A DNA stretch of 64,000 nt from a virus (taxonomy: Duplodnaviria; Caudoviricetes). The notes beneath the pieces are model-generated. The model was not told where the DNA came from. It worked only from the letters and a program-made list of their open reading frames with translations, and ran no database searches. Location: the IMG/VR virus record IMGVR_UViG_3300030376_006484, positions 1 through 64,000 of that record; one strand, given 5' to 3'. Below are positions 8,480 through 52,645 of the stretch, piece after piece. Position 1 is the stretch's first letter. Every line of letters starts with the position of its first letter. The position numbers were made by a program, and so were the translations under genes.

Positions 8480-8759
8480 AATCTACAACCCCTAAATAAT
8501 GATGCTCTATTCCTTCATGTTTCAAGAAAAATTGAATATTGGATACTACAAGGGATTCATCTAAACTAGAAAGATACACTTCTATATCCGCATTAGTATA
8601 TTTGAAGAATACTCTACTTGTGTCTTTTTTGTGTCTTAACCAATGGGCATTGAACAATTCTAAAACCATTCTTTGATTCACCGAAATATCGTCTTCTAAA
8701 GAGAAGACTAGTTTTTTCTTGTTTGGTAGTTTATCAAAGTCCTTCATACAATCCCTCAA
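8469..8759 (-). CDS. Hypothetical protein
   Basis: Translationally coupled ORF in the operon. Confidence 0.55.
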   Translation of the reverse strand: MRDCMKDFDKLPNKKKLVFSLEDDISVNQRMVLELFNAHWLRHKKDTSRVFFKYTNADIEVYLSSLDESLVVSNIQFFLKHEGIEHHYLGVVDYVI

Positions 8760-10285
8760 AATAAGTTTATTACATCGTCAATAGTATTTATTTGACTTAG
8801 AATTTTGTCGTCTCTAATTCTATCCTTTCTAGGAAATCTTAGACCTAGTGTTCCATTAGTATTCCTAGTAACTGCGTCAGCAGTAACAGAGATAATTATT
8901 GAAGGAGTTATTGAATGATTCTCAGTAGATGCGTTATAATTAGAAATAAGCCTACGACATTTAGAGGTTAAAGAAATTAAGTCTTCATCACTAAAACCAA
9001 TACCAACTCTACCAATTGGTTCATATCCGCTATCGGAAGAAGATGATAGTACACTAATTTCAAAACTAGAAAATAGGTTGGTATTAGAATTCTCGCCATA
9101 CTTAGCACCTGTAATCACTACATCTAAATCAATTTGAGCAGGTTTGTACTTAATCCACTTCCTCTTAGCAGGGTGATATTCGTCGCCCATATCTTTGACC
9201 ATGATGCCTTCAAAACCTCCTGCAATCGCTTGATTGTAAAAGGCGAAAGGGTCGCCATCAACCACCCGTAGGGCTTGATGAGGCAAAGAAGAGAAGGTTT
9301 CAAGCCGTACTCTTAAAGGATAGGCCATGATAGATACTCCATTCATTTTCAAACAATCAAACACTACCCATTCTACAGGACACTTCAAAAGCAAATCGGA
9401 ATTTATGTTCTTTGAGTGGACTCTTTTATTCATTTGTTGATGAGCAACTGGATAACCGCTACCATCAATCGGATATATTTCTCCATCTAGAATAAAATTG
9501 TCTTCTTCATAGGCAAGTATCTTTTCTATTACATCGGGGAATTGGGGATTAACTACCTTTCCTCTTCTGTTAAAGATAATAACAGAATCCTTCTCCTTAT
9601 GTATTTGATACCTATTACCATCGTACTTAATATCATAAACTGCATCCTCCGGCCATTTCTTGAAAGGTTGGACTTTAGCCAACATCGGTGAAACAAATTT
9701 ACCATGCACTAGATTTAGTGGCGGGCTTCTATTCATTTCATAGTAAGAGGTAACTGAAACTATACTGTTGAGAGAACAGTCCCGTTGTACTTCTTGTTGA
9801 GTTTTATTGTATTTCTTTGCTAGAACCTTTTGTATTGTTTTTTCGCCTATCTTGTTATTGGGGGTTCTAATCCAAAACTTGACAAACCACTTTCTTTCGT
9901 AGTCCGACATTGATAAGAAGGCTTCTTGTATTGTGTCAAAGGATAATGACCTAGAAGAACAGTCCAATTCTAGAAGTTGAATAATCCTTTTAAGACTATA
10001 CTCTTCTTCCGAATCAAAGGTTTCCATTAAAGATACTGCTTCTCCAATGTCGTTAGTTGCATCATACAATGCGTCTAATTCTTCATCAAATATTCCAAAG
10101 AAAGAGGATAGCCACTTCTTTGCTTTGGTTAATCCAATATTATTCTTTTCTAAATCTAGGCTTAGAATCTTTACTAGGTCTGTTGGATTAAAATTCTCCA
10201 TTTCCTTTGTAAGTCGGTTCACTTGTGTTGTCGGCGTTTGGTCGCAAATCGCTTCCATTAGTCGGGCTAGTCTTTTCATTGTCAT
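8756..10285 (-). CDS. lig: ATP-dependent DNA ligase (replicative)
   Basis: PMLA, KYDGNR, FILDGE, VFD, EGIMVK, WIKYK, LRFPR...RDDK motifs. Confidence 0.95.
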   Translation of the reverse strand: MTMKRLARLMEAICDQTPTTQVNRLTKEMENFNPTDLVKILSLDLEKNNIGLTKAKKWLSSFFGIFDEELDALYDATNDIGEAVSLMETFDSEEEYSLKRIIQLLELDCSSRSLSFDTIQEAFLSMSDYERKWFVKFWIRTPNNKIGEKTIQKVLAKKYNKTQQEVQRDCSLNSIVSVTSYYEMNRSPPLNLVHGKFVSPMLAKVQPFKKWPEDAVYDIKYDGNRYQIHKEKDSVIIFNRRGKVVNPQFPDVIEKILAYEEDNFILDGEIYPIDGSGYPVAHQQMNKRVHSKNINSDLLLKCPVEWVVFDCLKMNGVSIMAYPLRVRLETFSSLPHQALRVVDGDPFAFYNQAIAGGFEGIMVKDMGDEYHPAKRKWIKYKPAQIDLDVVITGAKYGENSNTNLFSSFEISVLSSSSDSGYEPIGRVGIGFSDEDLISLTSKCRRLISNYNASTENHSITPSIIISVTADAVTRNTNGTLGLRFPRKDRIRDDKILSQINTIDDVINLF

Positions 10286-10764: not shown

Positions 10765-10976
10765 TCTTCTTCATCTCCTTCAAACATATTTGTTAGAATT
10801 CTGTAGAGTACTTTGGCTTCTATCATATTAAACCGTACTCCCTTTCTTGTTGGTTTTTCATCTTTATACCAACGAATATCTAGAACCTCTATTCCATAAT
10901 AGCGGCCTTGATGCACCTTTACTTCTTGGGTGCTATTTCTAATAACTCTACCCTTAAATTCCATATCGTCATTCAA
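10761..10976 (-). CDS. PC4/Sub1-like ssDNA-binding protein
   Basis: YYGIEVLDIRWY...PTRKGVRF matches the PC4 signature (DIR.Y....P.KKGI). Confidence 0.75.
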   Translation of the reverse strand: MNDDMEFKGRVIRNSTQEVKVHQGRYYGIEVLDIRWYKDEKPTRKGVRFNMIEAKVLYRILTNMFEGDEEE

Positions 10977-11370
10977 GCATCCATCCCTCCTTGAATTTCT
11001 TTACTTCCTTTCTAGAAAGGAAATATCTAGGCGTGTCTAATTCATCTAGACGATTAACAACCCAACAGGCTCCGCCTAAACTAGATATTTGTACGATTTC
11101 GTATTGGCCTCCGCTAACTTCACAAACTTCTTTTGTATTTATGTCGGGGGTTAGACCATACATTCTAGTAATTTCTGAGGCAACATCGTGTATGTTATCA
11201 ACTACATACTTGATAATGTGCGCTCTTTGAATAGGGATTTTAGGAGCAACCTTGATTTCTAATTCACCACTTAAGTTACAGACCTTGCATTTATTACCTT
11301 CACAAATAGGACAAGTAATCCTAGACTTGTGGGGGGCGGGAAGGGTAACCGTGATTGCTCTTTTCTTCAT
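10969..11370 (-). CDS. Protein with DnaJ-type CxxCxG zinc finger
   Basis: CPICEGNKCKVCNLSG; directly downstream of groEL. Confidence 0.55.
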   Translation of the reverse strand: MKKRAITVTLPAPHKSRITCPICEGNKCKVCNLSGELEIKVAPKIPIQRAHIIKYVVDNIHDVASEITRMYGLTPDINTKEVCEVSGGQYEIVQISSLGGACWVVNRLDELDTPRYFLSRKEVKKFKEGWMLE

Positions 11371-11372
11371 GA

Positions 11373-12890
11373 CTATTCCTCTTTGAGGACTGCAACTTCT
11401 GTAGATAAGAACATTAAAGCAATTGACATGGCGGCTGATAAACTACTCTTAGTTACCTTAACGGGGTCAATAACTCCTTCTTCCCAAAGGTTTTCTACTT
11501 CTCCGGTTTTAGCATTGTAGCCTATTAGTTCACTAGGTTTGATTGAATCCCAAATATCTTCTGTTGCATCCCCGTTTTGTAATAAAACACTAATTGGGGT
11601 CATAAAAACATCAGCAAGGTACGGTAGATTGGGAACATCAATTTCCTTCTTCATCTCTTGGAAGGCCAATAGTAAACCTAGACCGCCACCCACAATAACT
11701 CCTTCTTGTAGTGCGGCCTTCGTAGCGTTTAGTGCGTCATCAAGTCTCTCTTTGGTTTCTCTCAATTCAACACTAGAACCGCCACCTACAGTTATTACTG
11801 CAATACCTCCCTTTAATCTAGAAATTCTAGTGGTGAGTCTTTCTCTAATCCAATCATTGTTAGCAATCTTGTATAATTCAGTTAGTGCTTCTACTCTTTC
11901 TTGGGGATTTCCAATACCCCCTATAATTGTTGAATCCACTTGGTTCAATATGACCTTATCGCATTCGCCAAAGGAAGACTCATCAACAATTCGCAAATCA
12001 TCCTTTGCTTCATCGGAGAATAATTTCCCTCCTACAACAGAAATAATATCTTTCAATTCATCTAGTCTAGCATCACCATGATTAGGGGCTTGTGTTACAC
12101 CAATCTGTATTCTTCCTTGAACAACATTCGCTAATACATTAGATAGAGCAGAACCTCTTAAGTCTCCACAAATCAAATACAATGGGCGACTCTTAGAAGA
12201 AGCATACTCTAGCGCAGGAAGAATATCACTAAAGTTGATGATTGTCTTATTAGTACAGAACACTAGGGGCTTCTCTAGAATACATTCGCCACTATCTTGA
12301 TTAGCAAATAGGTGGCTAGCATAGCCATTATCTAACTCTAGACCTTCTTTTAATTCAAAATCTGTAGTTAATCCATGCCCTTCTTCAACAGAAATAACTC
12401 CGTCTTTACCTACATGAGAAAACACTTCCGCAATCAATTCTCCCAAAACAGGGTCATTGTTAGCGGCAATTGTAGCAACATCTAGAATAGAATCATCAGT
12501 AACAGGTTCAGCCAAGTTATCTAAGAACAACATCATTTCATCCCTAACATACTCTAAATTATTTCTAATAGAATGTAGGTTGTTTAAGGGCATAGCCATA
12601 ATAGAATTACAAAGAGACTGTGCTAAAACACACGCCGTTGTTGTTCCATCACCTGCTTTTGATTGTGCCTTAAATGCTAGGTTCTGTACCAATTGGATTC
12701 CCATTTGAACATAAGGGTCTTCGTGACTAACATACTTAGCGATTGTTACACCATCGTTGATAACAACGGGTGGAGTACCCTGTAGGATAGCAGTACGGGC
12801 TTGTGGGCCTAGTGTTGGCCTAACAGTGTCAGCGACTAAGTTAATGCCTTGTAGGATTTTTTCTTTTACTTCATTACCAAAAAGAATCAT
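11373..12890 (-). CDS. groEL: Group I chaperonin GroEL
   Basis: TLGP, NDGVTIAK, AGDGTTTA, GGG, GVIDPVKV motifs; no GGM tail. Confidence 0.95.
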   Translation of the reverse strand: MILFGNEVKEKILQGINLVADTVRPTLGPQARTAILQGTPPVVINDGVTIAKYVSHEDPYVQMGIQLVQNLAFKAQSKAGDGTTTACVLAQSLCNSIMAMPLNNLHSIRNNLEYVRDEMMLFLDNLAEPVTDDSILDVATIAANNDPVLGELIAEVFSHVGKDGVISVEEGHGLTTDFELKEGLELDNGYASHLFANQDSGECILEKPLVFCTNKTIINFSDILPALEYASSKSRPLYLICGDLRGSALSNVLANVVQGRIQIGVTQAPNHGDARLDELKDIISVVGGKLFSDEAKDDLRIVDESSFGECDKVILNQVDSTIIGGIGNPQERVEALTELYKIANNDWIRERLTTRISRLKGGIAVITVGGGSSVELRETKERLDDALNATKAALQEGVIVGGGLGLLLAFQEMKKEIDVPNLPYLADVFMTPISVLLQNGDATEDIWDSIKPSELIGYNAKTGEVENLWEEGVIDPVKVTKSSLSAAMSIALMFLSTEVAVLKEE

Positions 12891-13102
12891 TCTTTCACCC
12901 CGTAAATGTCACTGTATTGGACAAAGATAAATCCACGATTCTTCTTTGCTTTCTCTATAGAATAGAAGATAGTCTTCCCAATAAGAGAAGAATCACATTG
13001 ACAATCAATGACTGTACCTTTGTTTTCTTCTAAGGAAATGATTCCGTGTGTACTTTCTTTCTCTTCGTTTTTAACTACGACCCAATCTCCAACCGCTTTC
13101 AT
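12887..13102 (-). CDS. groES: Co-chaperonin GroES-like
   Basis: MKAVGDWVVV, GII mobile loop, SDIYGV; upstream of groEL. Confidence 0.8.
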   Translation of the reverse strand: MKAVGDWVVVKNEEKESTHGIISLEENKGTVIDCQCDSSLIGKTIFYSIEKAKKNRGFIFVQYSDIYGVKE

Positions 13103-13703: not shown

Positions 13704-13919
13704 TCAAGCCTCCATACCATTAACATTAACCATGTTAGCAAATTCCCATTGATGGAACATTTCATGTCCACCAATAAAACCACCTGCTTCTCTAATAGGC
13801 CCAATAAATTGTGCAGAACAAATTTGACAATAAACCATCACTATTCTTTCATCAATATGCGAGCCTACTTTTGTTTCGTAAGAAACTATTTTTCCTATGT
13901 CATTTTCTGTATATGTCAT
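13704..13919 (-). CDS. Small C2H2-like zinc-binding protein
   Basis: CQIC...HEMFH; coupled to the JAB gene. Confidence 0.55.
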   Translation of the reverse strand: MTYTENDIGKIVSYETKVGSHIDERIVMVYCQICSAQFIGPIREAGGFIGGHEMFHQWEFANMVNVNGMEA

Positions 13920-14461
13920 TCTTCTTCTCCTCCAATAAAACCTTTATTCATGTGTTGAATTCTTGTTGAGAATTCGTCAATACTTTCGTAGGTAATTATC
14001 TTTAGTAGTTCGGGTAGTTTATTACTCCAAACTCCATAATGGTCATACCCACCTAGAACATAAGCGGATTCCATCTTGGCTCCCCAAATTCTAATTGTTC
14101 TCCAATCAACCCCACTGAAATAAGCACTACCGAAAGGATGCGTATGTATCCAACACTTAATCGGTAACTTCATCCCTACAGGGTTAATTTGAAAATCAAC
14201 ATAGCCCGACGAACCACTAGAAATGTGTAGATTCCAATTAGCATCAACTACTACCTGTACTTCTAAGTTAGGCAATATCACTGTAGACGCTTCCCAAATT
14301 GCTGAATGAAATGTAGGGTGTTTTATTATTTCTTCACCCTCTTGGTTTATTAACATCTCATCAAAGACTCCTTGAATGTAAGGCTCAACTAATCCTCTTA
14401 ATTCCTGTAGATGTTTCGCTTTTAGTAATTCAACTGAATTCATGGTTGTTCTACTTTTCAT
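13916..14461 (-). CDS. JAB/JAMM metalloprotease (Ubl-processing/deconjugating)
   Basis: E (NLEVQ)...WIHTHPFGSAYFSGVD = Ex(n)HxHx7Sx2D. Confidence 0.88.
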   Translation of the reverse strand: MKSRTTMNSVELLKAKHLQELRGLVEPYIQGVFDEMLINQEGEEIIKHPTFHSAIWEASTVILPNLEVQVVVDANWNLHISSGSSGYVDFQINPVGMKLPIKCWIHTHPFGSAYFSGVDWRTIRIWGAKMESAYVLGGYDHYGVWSNKLPELLKIITYESIDEFSTRIQHMNKGFIGGEEE

Positions 14462-14623
14462 TTAAATCCCTCCACTTAAAAAATAACCAAAATACAGAAG
14501 TGAGATTACTCCTACCGAGAACAAAAAGCAAGTATAGCAAGTGTAAATTAATAGTATCCCACTAGTAAATTCTTCTACGGTTAGTTTCTTATTATCTTCT
14601 GTGTCTATATCATATACTCCCAT
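14462..14623 (-). CDS. 53-aa membrane protein
   Basis: Manual translation MGVYDIDTEDNKKLTVEEFTSGILLIYTCYTCFLFSVGVISLLYFGYFLSGGI; GAGGTGG SD; fills the gap between E1 and JAB. Confidence 0.55.
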   Translation of the reverse strand: MGVYDIDTEDNKKLTVEEFTSGILLIYTCYTCFLFSVGVISLLYFGYFLSGGI

Positions 14624-14632
14624 ATTACCACC

Positions 14633-15187
14633 TCAAACATTAATCACGGCAAAGCCGTTCACTTCTTCATCATTAAACCAACGCTGAATCCATTCAGCAC
14701 CCATTCCTGCAATAGCAACTTGTAAGAAATGTACTCCTTCTGTAGAGCCATCCCATGAATCACCTTGACAAGAAAAACTACCATCCGGCCCTGCTAACAT
14801 AGTATCATACATTTTAGGGTCGGCTTTGTAGGATACATAGGCGGCGTTCCTTGCTTGAGAGCGAAGGTCTAGCCACGCTATGTTTGAACGGTATAGCATC
14901 CTTCGTGCGGATAGATTATCCACACAACATACTACCAAATCATATCCTTGTATCTGCCCATCGGTTAGGATAGGGAATTTACTTGGACTGATGGGATACC
15001 TCTTTTGTAGAGCCATTACCTTTAATTCACCCACTTCATCTTCCGTGAAGTTTTGGTAAGGTAGGTTCTTTGTATCTACGGTGTCGGGGTCACTTACGCT
15101 AATCGTGTAAAGGCCCGTCTTATCTAATAGTGGTATTAGAAAACTTCCAATTCCACCGGCTCCAATTATCAATATTTTTCTTTTCAT
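14633..15187 (-). CDS. ThiF/MoeB/E1-like Ubl-activating enzyme
   Basis: ILIIGAGGIGS, DPDTVDTKNLPYQ, K, CVDNLSAR, candidate catalytic Cys in FSCQ. Confidence 0.92.
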   Translation of the reverse strand: MKRKILIIGAGGIGSFLIPLLDKTGLYTISVSDPDTVDTKNLPYQNFTEDEVGELKVMALQKRYPISPSKFPILTDGQIQGYDLVVCCVDNLSARRMLYRSNIAWLDLRSQARNAAYVSYKADPKMYDTMLAGPDGSFSCQGDSWDGSTEGVHFLQVAIAGMGAEWIQRWFNDEEVNGFAVINV

Positions 15188-15331
15188 TTTTATTCCTCCA
15201 TTCTACAAGCAACTTCTTCTTGTATTCCTTCTACTATCCATTCTAAATCTCTACAAGACAGTTCCATATTGAATAGTATTCGTAATACATTGTCTCTTGC
15301 TAAGGTACTCTTTAATTTATCTTCTGTATCT

Positions 15332-15598
15332 TTATTCATTTTTATTCCTCCATTCTTCAAATGTTGATTGTGATTCTTTCATGGTATATGACATACTTAT
15401 CATACTAGCAAGTCCTCTGTATAATACATCTTGAATTGACGCATCAAATTGAGAGAACAATGGTGCTAACATCATTCTAGTTGCCGTCACATAACAATTA
15501 CATTCACGACAAACTCTATCTTCAAACTTAGGTAGAATCGGTTGAGGGTTATTCCCTTCCCAAGTCTCTATTTCTTTTTCGCATATTTTACATTTCAT
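15332..15598 (-). CDS. Zinc-finger protein
   Basis: CKIC...GNNPQP...CRECN. Confidence 0.6.
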   Translation of the reverse strand: MKCKICEKEIETWEGNNPQPILPKFEDRVCRECNCYVTATRMMLAPLFSQFDASIQDVLYRGLASMISMSYTMKESQSTFEEWRNKNE

Positions 15599-15599
15599 A

Positions 15600-16424
15600 T
15601 TACCATATCCATTGTGTTCCTTGTCCTTTTATTTCGGACTCTGTTTTACCTACTGTTCGTAGGAGTTTTTTTGTTGTATCTCTACAAGTGCGACTAGTCA
15701 CACCTACAACCTCACCAACTTCTTTTTGAGTTAGTTGTTTAAATTCGCAAAGATTTGCTATGTAGATTATCCCTGCTACTGCGCTCTTATTTAGAGTAAG
15801 AGTACGCATTTCGTATTCCCTCTCAAAGAAGGAAAGTAACATGCTACAGGTACTAGCAAAATGTCTGTCCCCTAATTGAAGGGAATACTTCTCTACCAAA
15901 GAATCAAGAGATTGAATAAAGACTCCACTATTCTTAAAATGCTTAGAAATCTTCTTGGCTACTTTAGCAACCAACTTTGGGTTTGCACCATATTCAGCAC
16001 AAACTTCTTTTAAAGTAAAAGGTAAATTTCTCTCTCTTAGTACATAGTAAATTAAAGCACTAGCCCTATCTTCATAAGTAGATTGACCAAATACCCCTGC
16101 TCTAAAACAAGTCATGTAGGCGTTTTCTACTCTCTCCATTTGGCTCTTTGAATTAGTCAAAGAAGACATTAACATTTTAGAGAAACCTAATCCCACATCT
16201 ACATGACTTCTTTTACCTCTTTCATATCTATGAACAGGCTTAGAACCTAGAGTTTTATCTACATGCCTAATTATTTCTCCATCATGAGTAAATAAAGAAA
16301 CCGTTTGGTCAAAGGGTTCAGTTACTACAATCAAACCACAGTCTTGACATTCTTTCTCGCCCATGTATTCGTTGTACGAAAAATCAGTACTGTTACATTC
16401 AGTACAATTAAGCAAGGTTCTCAC
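15600..16424 (-). CDS. tfb: Transcription initiation factor TFB/TFIIB homolog
   Basis: Zn ribbon CTEC...GEKECQDCGLIV, two cyclin repeats (ASALIY...PFTLKEV; AGIIYIA...LTQKEVGEVVGVT). Confidence 0.88.
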   Translation of the reverse strand: MRTLLNCTECNSTDFSYNEYMGEKECQDCGLIVVTEPFDQTVSLFTHDGEIIRHVDKTLGSKPVHRYERGKRSHVDVGLGFSKMLMSSLTNSKSQMERVENAYMTCFRAGVFGQSTYEDRASALIYYVLRERNLPFTLKEVCAEYGANPKLVAKVAKKISKHFKNSGVFIQSLDSLVEKYSLQLGDRHFASTCSMLLSFFEREYEMRTLTLNKSAVAGIIYIANLCEFKQLTQKEVGEVVGVTSRTCRDTTKKLLRTVGKTESEIKGQGTQWIW

Positions 16425-17637
16425 TCTCTACTGGTTCTAAATATCTTTCTATGTGGTTACCAAAGGCGATTTCTAATTTGGAGTTTTCATCCACCAATTC
16501 AAAATTTATTCTATGCGTAGCGGAAGGAATACTCTTCATGGTAGAGACTCTTTGTTTAGTCATTCTATCATTAATGCACACCAACAATCTAGTTACTAAT
16601 TGGTCATGTATAGGAGAATTGGATTGAAGGTTATCAACACAAACAGCCCTCCATTCGCCTATGGTATCATCTTCTTTAATAATGGATAAGTAAGCAGTTG
16701 TTACTAATTGCCTACCTGCTGATTTCCTATTAGTATTCCAACTGAATAACCAATCGTTGTCTATCCCTTTGACTAGTAGATACTGTTCCCTTGTTTCTTT
16801 ATCGGAAAGCATCTTGACTTTATTCTTATACTTAGCAAGCGTTTGCTCTAACAAAATTTCTGCCCTATCTTCTATTAATTTAGAGGTTCTGTTTTGTTCC
16901 AAAAAGGCAATCATAACATCGGAGTCCGATTCTGTTATTTCTTTACCCATTAGAAGAAAGTAGAGTTTTTGAGGGGAAAGGAATTTCCAAGAGCCTCTAT
17001 TATGCCCATGTAAGTAGTGTCCTAAATACTTAGACAAGTCTTTGAAAGAAATAGTACCCCAAACAGAATCACTTATCTCTAAGGCTATCTTATCATCACT
17101 TATTTGTTTAGCATTCAGTCTAACATCAACTCTTCGCCCGTTATTAAAGAAGTAAAATGGTACTCTATTTTCAAGGACATGGCTAATCTCGTAAGGAGTA
17201 TTGCATATCCTGTAGAATAGCATCATCGTTTCCGACCTACTCATGTCATTATTTACACGGTAGAGGAATCTAGATAGATTGTAGAAAATCTCTCTCTTAG
17301 TACCCTTCAAACCATTAATAGAAATTGGTGTTTCGTTGGTTACTATAACTGAGAAGTCGTTTATTACAAATTCTAGATAGTCTTTTGGACTACTAGTTAT
17401 GTCTTTCATCATTCTTTTAATTTTTTCAGCAAAGGAGACTACCAAAGAATCTAATGAGGTATGTACTTGGTTCGCCCTACCATTAAAGTAATGAGAAACA
17501 GTACTTGCATATCCATTCCGTATAATTTGAACAGTTCCCCGTATGCTTTTCTTCTCTCGGTACTGGCCGTCACTGTGTAAGGGGAGTTCTAGGCTTTTTT
17601 TCTCTGTATTATAATTTGTAATTGTTGATTCCGTCAT
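16408..17637 (-). CDS. Uncharacterised 409-aa protein in the Ubl locus
   Basis: Long coupled ORF; C-terminal YLLVKG...AVCVDN...PIHDQLVTRLLVCIND. Confidence 0.75.
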   Translation of the reverse strand: MTESTITNYNTEKKSLELPLHSDGQYREKKSIRGTVQIIRNGYASTVSHYFNGRANQVHTSLDSLVVSFAEKIKRMMKDITSSPKDYLEFVINDFSVIVTNETPISINGLKGTKREIFYNLSRFLYRVNNDMSRSETMMLFYRICNTPYEISHVLENRVPFYFFNNGRRVDVRLNAKQISDDKIALEISDSVWGTISFKDLSKYLGHYLHGHNRGSWKFLSPQKLYFLLMGKEITESDSDVMIAFLEQNRTSKLIEDRAEILLEQTLAKYKNKVKMLSDKETREQYLLVKGIDNDWLFSWNTNRKSAGRQLVTTAYLSIIKEDDTIGEWRAVCVDNLQSNSPIHDQLVTRLLVCINDRMTKQRVSTMKSIPSATHRINFELVDENSKLEIAFGNHIERYLEPVESENLA

Positions 17638-17641
17638 ATTA

Positions 17642-17800
17642 TCACATCATTCTCATTTTTGTTTTGTAATTGTTTACACATTCTTCATGTGCTTCTATTT
17701 TCATATCTTGTGGAGTTAGTAAAGAGCCTCCACATACTCTGCATTTTGTCGCTATCTTGCGACCTCTTGAATTGTCTGTATAGTTTGGATTTTTTGACAT
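17642..17800 (-). CDS. 52-aa zinc-finger protein (CxxC...HxxC)
   Basis: Manual translation MSKNPNYTDNSRGRKIATKCRVCGGSLLTPQDMKIEAHEECVNNYKTKMRMM; GAGG SD. Confidence 0.6.
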   Translation of the reverse strand: MSKNPNYTDNSRGRKIATKCRVCGGSLLTPQDMKIEAHEECVNNYKTKMRMM

Positions 17801-17802
17801 AA

Positions 17803-18093
17803 TTAATCCTCTAATTTATTTACTTCGTGGTATTTAACATACACATCAAAATCTTTAATGTATTTTATTAAATATTGGTTGAATCCAATTGTCACGGCTT
17901 CATCAATATCAAAAAGATAATTCTTTAATTTAGAATTTAAGAAGAAGACTTGTTCTTTTTCGTCGTCCATCAACAACGAATGCCGTAGTGCTGTCTCAAC
18001 GAATAATTGCCCCTCCACCGATAACATAGGTAGAAGTGACTTAACTACTGCTCTACAATGAGCAAAGTTACGGTAGAGGGGCATAAGCACCAC
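17803..18093 (-). CDS. Hypothetical protein
   Basis: ORF in the operon. Confidence 0.55.
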   Translation of the reverse strand: MVLMPLYRNFAHCRAVVKSLLPMLSVEGQLFVETALRHSLLMDDEKEQVFFLNSKLKNYLFDIDEAVTIGFNQYLIKYIKDFDVYVKYHEVNKLED

Positions 18094-18130
18094 GGTTTAA
18101 GGGATGGTTTTATTCATCAACAAGGCGGGT

Positions 18131-18337
18131 TCAACAGGAACCTCCAACAATAGCAGGAGTCAAGTCCACGCTACTAACAGTATCCCAATTGATAGAGTTA
18201 ATGTCTTGACGGCTCACCATCTCACCATCAACGAAAACCCAATGCGTAGGGTGTGTTTCAATTTGTTCTACAACTTTCTCTACGGAGAGTTGCAATTCAG
18301 TGTGTCCTGTTTCATTCAAAATAGTTAGTGTAATCAT
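18131..18337 (-). CDS. Ubiquitin-like beta-grasp protein (ThiS/MoaD/SAMP-like) with GG-SC end
   Basis: 68 aa; VFVDGEMV and VDLTPAIVGG match the ThiS/MoaD consensus; GAGGTGA SD. Confidence 0.8.
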   Translation of the reverse strand: MITLTILNETGHTELQLSVEKVVEQIETHPTHWVFVDGEMVSRQDINSINWDTVSSVDLTPAIVGGSC

Positions 18338-18338
18338 T

Positions 18339-19499
18339 TTAATTCACCTCTGTTTTATTCACCTTGTCATGACTATTTAAGCCATCCCCTTTATTTGCGG
18401 AAATCCAAACGGTTGCTTGTCTCTTTGTCACTTTTTCGCTACCGTTGTATCCTAAGTTTTGCATGTATTGGATTTGGTTATCTGTTGCCGCCTCCATACA
18501 TTTAGTTAATGTTTCAATTTGCCTTTGGGATAGAGCATTACCCCAATTAGAATTCTTCAATTTGATTTCTATATCCCGAAGGAAGTTAGTTGTCCAATTA
18601 TCAAAAGGAAGATTGTTCTTCACTTCGTAGTAATTACTAATCCCAAAGAATTCCATCTTATTAGAAATATTGCGAGAATACCTCTTCTCTCGCATACTAT
18701 CAACCTCGGCCATTTTCTTTTCCATATCAGCATCTTCTTCGGCAACAATAGCAAAGGTTTCTCTTGATGAATAGTAGAAATCATCTAAATCCTCTAACAG
18801 TTTTTTATTAGGGTAGCCCTTAGTATTAATTTGAGCCTTTGGGTTATCGGGATGATTCCAACGCCATACAATAGAAGCCATTTCTCCATCCATAGCCCTT
18901 TTACGAATATAGGTCTTGGGGCGATGTGTATTTAGTTTCTCATCCCAATAGAACCCTTTACTTCTAACATTGACTCGCAAATCTAAGTCCTTAATCTTGT
19001 TGAATTTAAACTCAAAGATTGAACCGTTATTAGCCCACCAAGCAGTTTTCTTCATTCCTTCAATCCGAACATTAATCCATTGGTCAATCATCTCATCCGT
19101 AATGTATTCATCTTCAAGACCCGTTTCCTGTTTAATCGCTCTAAGAATTAGATAAGAATTGATGTGGTCGCTACCAACACATTCCTTTCTACCATTCTCA
19201 GTATTTTCTATTTCAAAATGATAAATGATTCTATGACCACATAGACAACTACCGTATCCCATACTAGAATTCATAACCCACGGAGGGGCATCTTCGGCTC
19301 TATCTCCACCATATTGTGACCACCAAACATTTCCTGTAGCCAACCATTCTAATTTTGCATCGTCGTAATTGTCTGCATTAGAAAGACGGGTAAGTGCCTC
19401 TTTCAAAGCCCTATCCCATCTTCCATTTCCTAGTCTTCTCTTTGGTTGAACCAACTCTCTTTCGTAACTTAATTCAATTGCTTCTCTTGGTATATCCAT
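18339..19499 (-). CDS. Uncharacterised protein with CxCGH...VGSDH zinc-binding motif
   Basis: CLCGHRI...NTENG...VGSDHI; C-terminal ATDNQIQY...TKRQA motif. Confidence 0.7.
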   Translation of the reverse strand: MDIPREAIELSYERELVQPKRRLGNGRWDRALKEALTRLSNADNYDDAKLEWLATGNVWWSQYGGDRAEDAPPWVMNSSMGYGSCLCGHRIIYHFEIENTENGRKECVGSDHINSYLILRAIKQETGLEDEYITDEMIDQWINVRIEGMKKTAWWANNGSIFEFKFNKIKDLDLRVNVRSKGFYWDEKLNTHRPKTYIRKRAMDGEMASIVWRWNHPDNPKAQINTKGYPNKKLLEDLDDFYYSSRETFAIVAEEDADMEKKMAEVDSMREKRYSRNISNKMEFFGISNYYEVKNNLPFDNWTTNFLRDIEIKLKNSNWGNALSQRQIETLTKCMEAATDNQIQYMQNLGYNGSEKVTKRQATVWISANKGDGLNSHDKVNKTEVN

Positions 19500-20358: not shown

Positions 20359-20442
20359 TGTCGGAGGCAGGATTTGAACCTGCGAATCATTAAGAACAGG
20401 AGTTTAAGCCCTGCGCCTTTGACCAAACTCGGCTACTCCGAC
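20359..20442 (-). tRNA. tRNA-Leu (UAA)
   Basis: GTCGGAG acceptor, TGG D-loop, CAGGG-CTTAAAC-TCCTG anticodon arm, long variable arm, GGTTCAAATCC T-arm; no encoded CCA. Confidence 0.92.
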
Positions 20443-20451
20443 TTGAATAGG

Positions 20452-20524
20452 CGAGCGTATCAGGATTTGAACCCGAATCCTCGGCTTAGAAGGCCAAGAT
20501 GCTATCCTATTACACCATACGCTC
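20452..20524 (-). tRNA. tRNA-Arg (UCU)
   Basis: GAGCGTA/TACGCTC acceptor, TTGGC-CTTCTAA-GCCGA anticodon arm, GGTTCAAATCC T-arm. Confidence 0.92.
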
Positions 20525-50176: not shown

Positions 50177-52645
50177 ATGCCCTCTACAGGTTTAACTATC
50201 GGGAAAGTCAAAGCCCCCGTTTCCGACGAAATACTACATCTGTTTGAGAAGGTTAGAGTATCTTATCTATCTGCAAAGGAAGATAAGAAAGAATACGGTG
50301 GTCGTTGGAGAAACACACTAGAAGAAATAAGCGAAGCATTTGATTCAATTTCTCCTTTGGGTAAAGAAATTAATGTTTTCTTAGACGAAAGGCATTTAGA
50401 AGATAATGATTCTAAAGACCCCGAAAGCACTACTGCTAGAATTATTTACGAAGCCATTAAAGATATGCGTTTCAAATCGGAAGAAGTAGAAGACCCCTTC
50501 GCTGACCGATTCAAAGGTAATGTGTTAGAAGCATTACTATCCGATGTTGGTACAATGGTCAAATTTATTCATTATGCTATTCGTTCCGATGAGAAAGCCT
50601 TACCTGCTGATTTCTACAAATCTAAAGAATTACAAGAAGATGAAATTACTGATGGATTGGAAGGACTTGATTTAGTAGTTGATGATGTTCCTTTGTTTAT
50701 CATTGAGCATTATGGTGACGATAAGGATTCTAAGAAGGTGGAAGCACAATTCAAAAAAGCAAATAAGATACTAGAAGAAATGATGCTATCAAATTCTTCG
50801 GAAGAAGATTTAGAAGAATTAGTAGAGGTTGATTTAGAAAAGGCCGAGAAAACTGAAAAGGCATCTTCTCAATTTATTGTTCCTAACAAACCCATGTACC
50901 GAATCTTTGACATTGATGACATGAATGAATTGAAAGGGTTTAGTGGAGAATATGTTGTCCAAGAAAAATATGATGGTATGCGAATACAGATTCATAAAAT
51001 AGATGACAAAATCAAAATCTACTCCTATAATGAAAAGGACATTACAGACAAGTGTTCCGAACAGGTCAAGGAATTACAGAAAAAGGCATACGGTGATTGT
51101 ATCCTTGATGCTGAGTTAATTTTGTTTGATGGAGAGAAAGCCCTCCATAGGGCAGATACAATAGCCCATGTTTTCAAGAATAAGTACAAAGAGGCTAGAC
51201 TAAGAGCGCATGTTTTTGATATTATGAGACATGAGGCTCAAAACCTTACAGAAGAACCCCTAAGAGATAGAATCAACATACTGTTCAACAATTATTCTTC
51301 CAAGTCTTCTTCGGATTTGGTTTACCCTTCAAAGAAAGATACTCGCATTGCTGACTCTCTAAAAGATATAGCAGAATACGCAGAAGAGATTATGGAAATG
51401 CCTACTTCGGAAGGAGTAGTCATTAAAGATATTGAATCCACTTACTTTATTGGTACTAAGAAAAACCCCAAGTGGGTTAAGTGGAAGAAGTTTGTAGATT
51501 TAGATATGGTCGTTCTAGACAAGAAATCTACTAAGTCCGGTCTTTACTCTTACACTTTAGGAGCAGGGCCAGTTGATGATGAGGACGAAGGTAAGCACAT
51601 TGTTGAACAGAACGATAGAAAATACATGAATGTTGGTAAGGCACTTAATACTAAGATTAATGCAAAGGTCGGCCAAATTATTAGAGTCAAAGTAGATGAG
51701 GTAAGAGAGGATAATGGTAGGTTTACTCTTTACTCGGCTAAGGTTATTGAAATACCCGAAGTTGAATTACCCGACAAAATAGTAACTTTACAAATGCTTT
51801 CTCAAGATACTAAACCTAGTATTAAATACAAAACTATGGCTTTGAAAAAAGGAATAACAATCAGTGATGGAATTCACGGCACTGCAACTTTGATTGCTAA
51901 AAGCATGGATGGCTTTACTTTGTACGGATTTAAAGAAACTAATCTTATGGCTAAGAATGCAATTCATGATTTAGATATGTGGAAAAAGGAAGCAGAAGAA
52001 ACTATGAAAAGTCTACAATCGGAAATATATGTGGGAGTTATCAATCTAATAAAAAGAAAGGGGCCACAACCAATAACAGAGGTACATGACTTCTTGATTA
52101 GGAATTATGGTAGCCAATACGAAACAGTATTAGAAAGCGATAAGAAAGAACTACCCGATTGGTTGAACCGTAGGGAAGACATATCAATATCCAACGGTAA
52201 GGTTTCAATTGACGATTCTAAAATAATTAAAGAGAAGCCTTCTCAATTTAAAATTTATTTGAGAAAGGACGGCAACCTTAATTTTTCAGTACAGCATAAA
52301 GAAGAATTATTGATGTGGACTATTGATTTAGAAACTGATGATGATATATTCGCATTGTTTGGTAAAGCAGTAAAGTATCCTGCGGAAATATCCGAGCAAC
52401 AAGATACTCATAAATTAATAGACGAAGGAGATGTAGAGGTAGGTGTTCAAAGGCATGGATACCATGAGTACATTTTAGACGGTAATAAGTTTGAGACTAA
52501 ATTACATTTCCGAGTAGTAGATATTAAGGATAAGGAAAGTTGGGTTGCTTGGACAGGATATGAGCAAAAACCTGTAGATAAAGATACAGACGAAGGCGTT
52601 TGGAATATCTATGAAGATAAGTACAAAACTCTAAAATTAGAATAA
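50177..52645 (+). CDS. Second ATP-dependent DNA ligase, multidomain, in the head module
   Basis: QEKYDGMRIQIH, CILDAE, HVFD, EGVVIKD, WVKWK motifs; long acidic N-terminus and an extra C-terminal domain. Confidence 0.9.
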   Translation: MPSTGLTIGKVKAPVSDEILHLFEKVRVSYLSAKEDKKEYGGRWRNTLEEISEAFDSISPLGKEINVFLDERHLEDNDSKDPESTTARIIYEAIKDMRFKSEEVEDPFADRFKGNVLEALLSDVGTMVKFIHYAIRSDEKALPADFYKSKELQEDEITDGLEGLDLVVDDVPLFIIEHYGDDKDSKKVEAQFKKANKILEEMMLSNSSEEDLEELVEVDLEKAEKTEKASSQFIVPNKPMYRIFDIDDMNELKGFSGEYVVQEKYDGMRIQIHKIDDKIKIYSYNEKDITDKCSEQVKELQKKAYGDCILDAELILFDGEKALHRADTIAHVFKNKYKEARLRAHVFDIMRHEAQNLTEEPLRDRINILFNNYSSKSSSDLVYPSKKDTRIADSLKDIAEYAEEIMEMPTSEGVVIKDIESTYFIGTKKNPKWVKWKKFVDLDMVVLDKKSTKSGLYSYTLGAGPVDDEDEGKHIVEQNDRKYMNVGKALNTKINAKVGQIIRVKVDEVREDNGRFTLYSAKVIEIPEVELPDKIVTLQMLSQDTKPSIKYKTMALKKGITISDGIHGTATLIAKSMDGFTLYGFKETNLMAKNAIHDLDMWKKEAEETMKSLQSEIYVGVINLIKRKGPQPITEVHDFLIRNYGSQYETVLESDKKELPDWLNRREDISISNGKVSIDDSKIIKEKPSQFKIYLRKDGNLNFSVQHKEELLMWTIDLETDDDIFALFGKAVKYPAEISEQQDTHKLIDEGDVEVGVQRHGYHEYILDGNKFETKLHFRVVDIKDKESWVAWTGYEQKPVDKDTDEGVWNIYEDKYKTLKLE

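Follow-up and report, generated by a model that had tools for sequence, protein, structure and literature searches.

A putative virus-encoded ubiquitin-like conjugation system in a magrovirus of marine group II Archaea

Does a virus of marine Archaea carry its own machinery for tagging proteins in the manner of ubiquitin? This question is raised by a cluster of genes, all encoded on the minus strand, between positions 13704 and 18337 of a 64,000-nucleotide stretch of viral DNA (hereafter "the window"; positions 1 to 64,000 of IMG/VR record IMGVR_UViG_3300030376_006484), which is part of a single contig of 86,150 bp. The first-pass annotation of this DNA described here a ubiquitin-like protein (Ubl), an E1-type activating enzyme, a JAB-type protease, three small zinc (Zn) fingers, a protein of 409 amino acids (aa) and the transcription factor TFB, and proposed a pathway in which JAB matures the Ubl and E1 conjugates it. 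All these genes were found again on the minus strand, exactly where they had been placed. The analysis described in this work suggests that the virus, a magrovirus, probably tags proteins in a ubiquitin-like way. The proposal that an E1, an E2-like protein and a JAB peptidase make up a Ubl conjugation cascade, encoded by a virus of marine group II (Poseidoniales) Archaea, has in our judgment somewhat better than an even chance of being correct. Taken as a whole, the earlier interpretation is partly supported.

The presumed modifier is the Ubl itself (18131-18337, minus strand; 68 aa, C-terminus PAIVGGSC). It is unrecognized by sequence methods: no family was assigned in Pfam, PHROGs or NCBIfam, and a profile search against the sequences of the PDB returned two rows at chance level (E 0.83 and 1.5). 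The structural model, calculated with AlphaFold2 (AF2) from an alignment of 131 relatives, has a predicted local distance difference test score (pLDDT) of 90.2 and displays the beta-grasp order b-b-a-b-b-a-b, with strands at residues 2-8, 11-17, 32-36, 39-41 and 56-61, helices at 19-28 and 43-48, and a flexible tail from residue 62. When the model was compared with the PDB by Foldseek, none of the matches reached E<=1e-3, and all 50 matches listed were ubiquitin, NEDD8, ISG15, SUMO or their variants (probability 0.90-0.99, E from 4e-3 to 1.4e-2). The VIA-align program gave Z-scores of 4.8-5.7 over 57-65 residues; the matches include MoaD (5.7), ubiquitin variants (5.5) and the Ubl of the Bil system (8tyx_A and 8tyz_B, 5.3-5.4), aligned over 61-63 of the 68 residues. 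On the strength of the model we are confident that the protein has the beta-grasp fold, as the first-pass annotation had claimed; the lack of this fold, which that annotation had named as one ground for refutation, is not what the model shows. Searched against the protein collection at E<=1e-3, the family yields 950 members, and the body of the protein contains 18 invariant columns in 131 sequences. It is nearly devoid of lysine, which occurs at position 3 only and in just 74 of the 131 sequences; therefore, poly-Ubl chains formed via a conserved lysine seem unlikely.

The C-terminus of the Ubl ends in G65-G66 (18140-18145), followed by the tail SC (18134-18139) and the stop codon. The motif PAIVGG is invariant in 13 of 13 sequences, and in the larger alignment of 131 sequences G65 never varies and G66 is conserved in all but one. 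The representatives of 120 clusters end as follows: 8 with GG, 110 with GG and two further residues (more than 20 different dipeptides), one with GG and five residues, and one with GD; the corresponding numbers for 80 viral loci are 14 ending with GG, three with one extra residue and 63 with two. Because the Gly-Gly pair is almost invariant while the short tail is highly variable, we propose that the Ubl is synthesized as a precursor that undergoes trimming; a variable tail of 0-2 residues after the near-invariant GG fits a substrate processed by a peptidase.

The cluster encodes a candidate for such a peptidase. JAB (13916-14461, minus strand; 181 aa) falls below the threshold of the Pfam family Prok-JAB (E 0.035, 14.4 bits vs 25). 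Its zinc site of the form E..HxHx7SxxD is invariant in 15 of 15 aligned relatives, with E67 at 14261-14263 and H106-x-H108-x7-S116-x2-D119 (H106-T-H108 in this protein) at 14105-14146, in agreement with the intact motif reported at the outset. The family profile aligns the active-site stretch to WIHTHPTQTAFLSSVD of an AMSH-like protease (E 1.2e-3). Judged by these residues, JAB is a JAMM/JAB (MPN+) metallopeptidase equipped with all catalytic residues.

The E1 (14633-15187, minus strand; 184 aa) consists of a single ThiF domain, lacks a rhodanese domain, and begins only three residues before the GxGxxG strand. Pfam assigns it to the ThiF family with E 1.9e-16 (60.4 bits vs the cut-off of 28.1), residues 3-140 being aligned to positions 21-163 of the 238 in the profile. 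The profile of the E1 family matches 45 PDB sequences at E<=1e-3, with the ThiF-type protein 9egc at the top (2e-9) and MccB, UBA3, UBA5, Uba4, Cap2, MoeB and ThiF among the others. The motif GAGGIGS and the aspartate of VDN (D90) are invariant and align with GAGGLG and CTDN of Uba4; within these motifs lie the residues that we take to bind ATP and Mg. Equally invariant are Cys140 (14768-14770, in GSFSCQG) and 65 other residues in 14 sequences of 60-82% identity, so that both the nucleotide-binding motifs and the cysteine in FSCQ, which the first-pass annotation had pointed out, are confirmed as features of the family. Nonetheless, the protein scores below all NCBIfam equivalog cut-offs (48.7 vs 159 bits for ThiF, 36.3 vs 449 for MoeB, 33.2 vs 450 for UbaA), and in PADLOC nothing matches the system except generic E1-E2 (Cap2) models.

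A new candidate member of the system is the 409-aa protein (16408-17637, minus strand). Its family comprises 195 clusters at 50% identity, with similar lengths. It has no match in Pfam, PHROGs, NCBIfam or PADLOC and no usable match in the protein atlas; no Pfam family is matched by more than one of 90 family members, and profile searches of the PDB with 14 and with 90 sequences of the family gave 0 matches at E<=10. A fold search of BFVD returned only three unnamed viral homologues and a weak row for a giant-virus E2 (E 0.047), and there is no paralogue of the E2-like domain elsewhere in the genome (the best other open reading frame (ORF) has E 1.9). The family alignment contains a C-terminal block W-x-G-P-I-C-[VI]-D-N...S-P-x-G-D-Q...R...L-N-D, in which the cysteine, Cys333 (16639-16641), is kept in 89 of 90 representatives. 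The AF2 model (pLDDT 83.5, predicted template modelling score 0.62) shows in residues 250-409 (approximately nucleotides 16411-16890) a long helix and five strands, with the cysteine directly after the last strand (327-332) and before the helices that follow, the nearest at 343-355. This order fits that of a UBC fold and would put the cysteine at the position of the E2 catalytic residue.

Comparisons of this model with known structures repeatedly lead to the same group of folds. E2 enzymes recur among the weak Foldseek rows (e.g. UBE2N, probability 0.87), and a second look with VIA-align found Ube2K with Z 4.3 over 119 residues, Ubc13 with about 4 and the RWD domain of Knl1 with 4.4. A wide VIA-align search with residues 250-409 against 48,161 PDB representatives, independent of Foldseek, returned the ELF domain of FANCL (5.4), a kinetochore RWD domain (5.0), Ubc9 (4.6), UBE2F (4.4), UBE2O (4.3), the UEV domain of Tsg101 (4.2), BubB (9eav_D, 4.0) and CdnG-E2 (3.6). 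About 40 of the 50 matches listed are E2, UEV or RWD domains; such chains make up most of the matches in both searches, with Z between 3.4 and 5.4. Thus, the model makes it probable that the C-terminal domain is UBC/RWD-like, and fold, cysteine and context together suggest that the protein may function as an E2. Because this domain is probably UBC/RWD-like and carries a near-invariant cysteine, a cascade of the E1-E2 type is indicated, and the original scheme, in which E1 acts without an E2 as in sampylation, is probably incomplete.

In a set of 20 IMG/VR loci anchored on E1 (59-99% identity), JAB is present in 20 and the Ubl in 16, and the four loci without a Ubl have 195-2,900 bases upstream. 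In a second set, anchored on the Ubl and consisting of the best 80 of 226 contigs found, the 409-aa protein and TFB are each present in 79 loci, E1 in 76 and JAB in 75; neither their order nor their strand varies. Four of the loci in which E1 or JAB is missing (L046, L086, L097 and L060) end too early; the fifth, L091, contains a different gene of 716 aa after the Ubl, and its contig ends 3.5 kb downstream, so it cannot be judged. A third set, anchored on a conserved 133-aa protein described below, reveals JAB in 48 of 48, E1 in 43 of 43, TFB in 40 of 40 and the 409-aa protein in 39 of 39 loci with enough upstream DNA. In addition, a scan anchored on the capsid protein (relatives of at least 73% identity) found the Ubl in three of three long contigs outside the Ubl list. 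Co-occurrence across magroviruses had been put forward as a check on the prediction. Wherever a related viral contig extends far enough, it carries the Ubl, E1, JAB, the 409-aa protein and TFB, and always in a single order. Within the block, only the 133-aa protein evolves more slowly than the Ubl and E1, which show 60-63% and 59-60% identity, respectively, to the most distant loci, vs 40-41% for GroEL and 27-28% for TFB.

A further constant member is a small Zn ribbon (17642-17800, minus strand; 52 aa, CxxC...HxxC), in which C20, C23, H38 and C41 show no variation among 14 sequences. It is encoded in 79 of the 80 Ubl-anchored loci and in 78 of them ends no more than 150 nt upstream of the gene for the 409-aa protein, of which it is a constant partner gene. 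The other two of the three small Zn fingers noticed in the first-pass annotation are also present, but they are variable accessory genes. The 88-aa protein with the pattern CxxC...CxxC (15332-15598, minus strand), which has no Pfam match, occurs in 18 of 80 loci. The 71-aa C2H2-like protein (13704-13919, minus strand), whose gene overlaps the stop codon of JAB, occurs in 27, of which 11 have it between E1 and JAB, 5 right after JAB and 11 elsewhere.

Outside viruses, a scan of species-representative cellular genomes, which finds close relatives only, yielded five E1 loci, one of them close. The sole close relative (58% identical) is encoded on a contig of 11,950 bp, NZMJ01000073.1, binned in a metagenome-assembled genome of Maricaulis sp., and this contig probably stems from a magrovirus and was assigned to the bacterial bin by mistake. 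We also observed one IMG/VR contig of 184,733 bp with two copies of the Ubl 93 kb apart; this record has the look of a concatemer or of a fusion between two related genomes.

How could such a system work? From the genes, their motifs, the beta-grasp fold, the family-wide conservation and the co-occurrence we infer the following biochemical steps, including the role of the E2. The Ubl would be made with a short variable C-terminal tail (SC in this virus), and the JAMM peptidase would cut off this tail to expose the Gly-Gly; it probably would reverse conjugates, too. The minimal, presumably homodimeric E1 would then adenylate the Gly-Gly end and may hold the Ubl on Cys140, from which it would be handed to Cys333 in the UBC/RWD-like domain of the 409-aa protein. 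The latter, together with the 52-aa Zn ribbon and its own N-terminal domains, could choose the targets and transfer the Ubl to them without a separate E3. Because the genes lie in the replication/early arm of the genome, beside TFB, GroEL and a possible GroES, their position suggests that host or viral proteins are acted upon early in infection. In its full form, the proposal is that magroviruses run a complete cascade of their own. In it, a JAMM peptidase would both mature the Ubl precursor and erase the tag, and a minimal E1 would work with an orphan E2-like enzyme that has a built-in region for targeting and a Zn-ribbon partner; early in infection the cascade would tag proteins of the host or the virus, e.g. 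those of transcription or replication. We consider this full version possible, with a chance that falls somewhat short of even.

Several observations weigh against a cascade of this kind. The E1 is unusually short, being devoid of the last third of the ThiF profile and of the N-terminal helix, and it has an invariant Tyr44 where Uba4, 9egc and MccB carry the Arg of NLxRQ; because of this truncation and this replacement, its adenylation activity is not assured. According to PMC11601596, UBA5-type E1s have their catalytic cysteine in the crossover loop. The alignments of E1 to PDB sequences stop at about residue 100, and Cys140 can be assigned to the crossover-loop region only by its order in the sequence, after the second beta-hairpin region and ahead of the last long helix. 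The case for the E2 has its own weaknesses. The 409-aa protein exhibits no sequence-level similarity to E2s in Pfam or PDB profile searches; Foldseek found no PDB match to its model at E<=1e-3, and the best E2 row has E>=0.038. All VIA-align Z-scores for the E2 assignment are <=5.5, whereas matches with a Z under 8 may reflect just a common arrangement, and non-enzymatic RWD and UEV domains score as well as true E2s. There is also no HPN motif upstream of Cys333 in the family alignment; prokaryotic E2-like proteins are likewise described as lacking the HPN histidine in Table 1 (row 6d) of PMC1779556. Finally, co-occurrence is total in this group of viruses, with no lineage showing joint loss among the loci anchored on the 133-aa protein, and therefore it is inseparable from plain synteny.

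Other explanations of the locus have been considered. It is conceivable, if unlikely, that tagging is limited to the scheme originally proposed, in which JAB matures the Ubl, E1 alone conjugates it, and the 409-aa protein is unrelated, e.g. a partner of TFB in viral transcription. The gene for the 409-aa protein overlaps the start of TFB by 17 nt and always precedes it (79 of 80 loci), and its weak E2-like match is equalled by non-enzymatic RWD and Mediator-head domains. Sampylation in Haloferax works without a known E2. TBP2 is reported to be modified by a Ubl in PMC4895103. On the other hand, this scheme would leave unexplained a cysteine that 89 of 90 diverged representatives share and that, in the model, lies where the topology of an E2 has its cysteine, and the score of E1 is far from the UbaA cut-off. 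Quite improbable, in our estimation, is a role of the Ubl as a sulfur carrier, adenylated by E1 and converted to a thiocarboxylate, from which sulfur would reach a cofactor, tRNA or DNA modification via host enzymes, with JAB acting only as a trimming protease. Trimming of sulfur-carrier precursors by a JAB protein is known from the CysO/Mec and QbsE/QbsD systems. Moreover, the best VIA-align row of the Ubl is MoaD, the top NCBIfam rows of E1 are the ThiF and MoeB models, and, with a score of 0.83 that gives no more than a lead, the nearest named cluster in the protein atlas consists of ThiS-domain proteins from Thermoplasmatota. Clusters of Ubl, JAB and E1 genes for sulfur assimilation are described in PMC1779556. 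However, Foldseek places ubiquitin and NEDD8 first for the Ubl, E1 is far below the ThiF, MoeB and MoeZ cut-offs, and the high surface conservation of the Ubl and the presence of a co-conserved cysteine protein fit a protein-protein relay better.

The gene content of the virus bears on the same issue. We scanned 83 proteins of the 86,150-bp genome for sulfur-transfer families (48 from window ORFs of at least 100 aa, 16 from the cluster region and 19 from ORFs of at least 80 aa in the rest of the genome) and found among them no thiamine, molybdenum cofactor, rhodanese, desulfurase or tRNA-thiolation family, and specifically no ThiG, MoaE, cysteine desulfurase or Ncs6-type gene, although host enzymes could serve instead. 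The earlier statement that no such genes occur in the window holds for the proteins scanned there and extends to those scanned elsewhere in the genome. A counter-defence function, with the viral JAB stripping a host Ubl or the Ubl and E1 serving as decoys for host immunity of the Bil, Bub or CBASS type, has in our opinion only a slim chance of being correct. Bacterial Ubl systems are antiviral and tag virion proteins according to PMC11601596, and a JAB protein beside a ThiF protein is found in the replication module of a crAss-like phage (see below). Nonetheless, a decoy or an eraser would require neither a conserved Ubl of its own with a processed GG nor an E2-like protein with a cysteine, and the above-mentioned scan for close relatives in species-representative genomes gave no close cellular E1 other than the one on the viral-looking contig. 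We continue to favor a conjugation cascade consisting of the Ubl, JAB, E1 and the 409-aa protein.

The place of TFB in this cluster deserves separate consideration. The family profile of TFB (15600-16424, minus strand; 274 aa) matches the core of Pyrococcus TFB (1d3u/1ais) with E 2.3e-14 and the Zn ribbon 1pft with E 6.5e-4, and residues C7, C10, C26 and C29 are invariant, even though the match in Pfam is weak and the NCBIfam TFIIB model gives 51.7 bits vs a cut-off of 384. A divergent but real TFB/TFIIB, with a Zn ribbon and a cyclin-fold core, is thus predicted, and the first-pass annotation named the gene correctly. Its statement that the Ubl system is wrapped around TFB is true as a description of gene order, with TFB in 79 of 80 loci, but since synteny in these viruses extends over the entire block, the order of the genes is not by itself evidence for the suggested link between the tag and transcription. 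The connection between TFB and the Ubl system is one of synteny only, and TFB should be regarded as a conserved neighbor.

Two more genes accompany the cluster. Between the Ubl and the Zn ribbon lies an ORF of 96 aa (17803-18093, minus strand), detected by a family hidden Markov model in 73 of the 80 Ubl-anchored loci; it has no match in Pfam, PHROG or NCBIfam, and it is uncertain whether the protein belongs to the tagging system. Upstream of the Ubl in 70 of 80 loci is a gene for a protein of 386 aa (18339-19499, minus strand), which we do not claim as a member of the system. This protein contains invariant C85-x-C87-G-H89...H94...H112 and WRWNHPxNP and finds no match in Pfam, PDB, PADLOC or PHROGs; it could be a further component, e.g. 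a ligase-like or metal-binding one.

The genome that harbors the cluster encodes a family B DNA polymerase, an RFC-like clamp loader, two ATP-dependent ligases and a UvrD-type helicase, as well as GroEL, terminase, portal, prohead protease, an HK97-type capsid protein and a tail tube protein. An adjacent pair of tRNA genes, tRNA-Leu(UAA) and tRNA-Arg(UCU), is located at 20359-20524 (minus strand). Philosof et al. (PMC5434244) describe GroEL and precisely these two tRNAs in the group B magroviruses, which are assigned to Archaea of marine group II (Poseidoniales), and by this match the 86-kb genome is a group-B-type magrovirus. The Ubl/E1/JAB cluster is situated in the minus-strand arm that holds the replication genes and is adjoined there by TFB, GroEL and the possible GroES, while the virion genes are on the plus strand. 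A scan for bacterial-type promoters and terminators was uninformative (34 sites vs 36.5 expected). No RNA data set is among the 24 sequencing runs listed.

A number of side observations concern this genome rather than the Ubl system. The genome seems nearly complete, and circularly permuted in this contig. The family B polymerase is fragmented, with its N-terminal part at 2-1450 of the window (minus strand) and two further pieces at the end of the contig (84064-86142 of the genome), which are split by a 140-aa ORF with no family match and by an ORF for an HNH endonuclease (genome 85385-85891). Of the two ATP-dependent DNA ligase genes (8756-10285, minus strand, and 50177-52645, plus strand), the second is located among the virion genes and encodes a protein of 822 aa with the ligase domain in its middle. 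At 76870-77748 of the genome (plus strand) there is an HMGL-like gene (hydroxymethylglutaryl-CoA lyase family), a kind of auxiliary metabolic gene that is listed for magroviruses in PMC10160649. Just downstream of GroEL is the gene for the aforementioned 133-aa protein (10969-11370, minus strand), which has a CPICxGNKCxVC motif and no family match. It is the most conserved gene of the region, with a mean column identity of 80% and 67-98% identity to its relatives, compared to 40-76% for GroEL in the same loci. Directly upstream of GroEL, an ORF of 71 aa (12887-13102, minus strand), present in 74 of 80 related loci, exhibits a faint match to Cpn10/GroES (E 0.074). Magrovirus chaperonins are supposed to act without GroES in PMC5434244; the sequence of this ORF suggests that it may encode a viral co-chaperonin overlooked so far.

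In the literature searched, we found no description of a magrovirus or any other viral Ubl system with ThiF and JAB, and no paper that names the PDB codes 9EGB, 9EGC or 9EGD. ThiF, JAB, ubiquitin, MoeB and TFIIB are absent from the main texts of PMC5434244, PMC10160649 and PMC11706807, although the supplementary gene tables of PMC5434244 may name the genes. In prokaryotes, Ubl conjugation is known to serve either the functions of the cell itself (SAMPs) or its defence against viruses (Bil, Bub and type II CBASS). Here, the whole kit resides in a virus, and the hosts of its lineage belong to one of the most abundant groups of Archaea in the ocean; magroviruses are themselves among the most abundant viruses of the surface ocean. 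If our reading is true, no such cascade would have been shown before for a prokaryotic virus, and it would bring a new, very small E1 and a new lineage of E2. Should proteins indeed be conjugated, archaeal viruses would be using Ubl tagging for takeover or counter-defence; an E1 of 184 aa, without the canonical Arg, would approach the smallest possible Ubl-activating enzyme; and the 409-aa protein would represent a new E2-like family invisible to sequence methods. Both the virus and its host are uncultured; nonetheless, the question is testable, because the nearly lysine-free Ubl of 68 aa and its partners are small enough for direct reconstitution.

It is instructive to compare the magrovirus system with those already known. 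By its list of parts, the closest are the Bil operons, which, in PMC10557695 and PMC11601596, are likewise made of four separate proteins: a single beta-grasp Ubl with a processed C-terminus, a JAB protein that pre-processes it, an E1 and an E2 acting without an E3, for which the virus has a candidate. The alignment of our Ubl model to the Bil Ubl (Z 5.3-5.4, see above) adds to this likeness. However, the magrovirus system fails the defining E1 architecture of Bil, which is IAD-AAD-CYS in PMC11601596, compared to one ThiF domain of 184 aa in the virus. It also differs in that the E2 candidate forms the C-terminal part of a 409-aa protein and has no sequence similarity to E2s, and in that the system is encoded by an archaeal virus and not in a bacterial defence island. 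The SAMP/UbaA/HvJAMM1 system, on the other hand, shares with it the archaeal world, a small beta-grasp modifier with GG, a homodimer-type ThiF-like E1 and a JAMM peptidase; among the known targets of sampylation is the TATA-binding protein TBP2 (PMC4895103). Yet the viral E1 is not UbaA by score (33.2 vs 450) and is about 85 residues shorter, the viral Ubl has no sequence similarity to any solved Ubl, and an E2-like cysteine protein is co-conserved. Furthermore, SAMPs carry sulfur too, whereas no sulfur partner was found among the magrovirus proteins scanned.

The Bub system (6E/DUF6527) resembles the viral one in a different respect. In PMC11601596 it is described as having a minimal homodimer-type E1 similar to UBA5/ThiF, a JAB protein that cleaves the precursor and a diverged E2, and BubB (9eav_D) is among the structural matches of the 409-aa protein (Z 4.0). 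In contrast, Bub employs Tyr/Ser oxyesters without cysteines, according to the same source, while the magrovirus E1 and E2-like domain keep their Cys; the scanned magrovirus ORFs include no DUF6527 serine protease, and there are no Ubl-E2 or JAB-E1 fusions. Among viruses, the nearest likeness is found in the crAss-like Bacteroides phage DAC15 (MT074136.1; stretch L183, 3554-5663), where a JAB protein (365 aa, Prok-JAB 6.5e-5) is immediately followed by a ThiF protein (336 aa, 2.1e-14) in the replication module. The ThiF domain of this protein is 27-34% identical to the magrovirus E1, but both phage proteins are of greater size and contain several domains, and DAC15 infects a bacterium. In 48 phage records, most of them from crAss-like phages, there are related ThiF domains, all with less than 60% identity to the magrovirus E1 and with their genes annotated as "hypothetical" or "thiamine biosynthesis protein". 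We regard this as a hint that related kits may be widespread in the replication modules of viruses.

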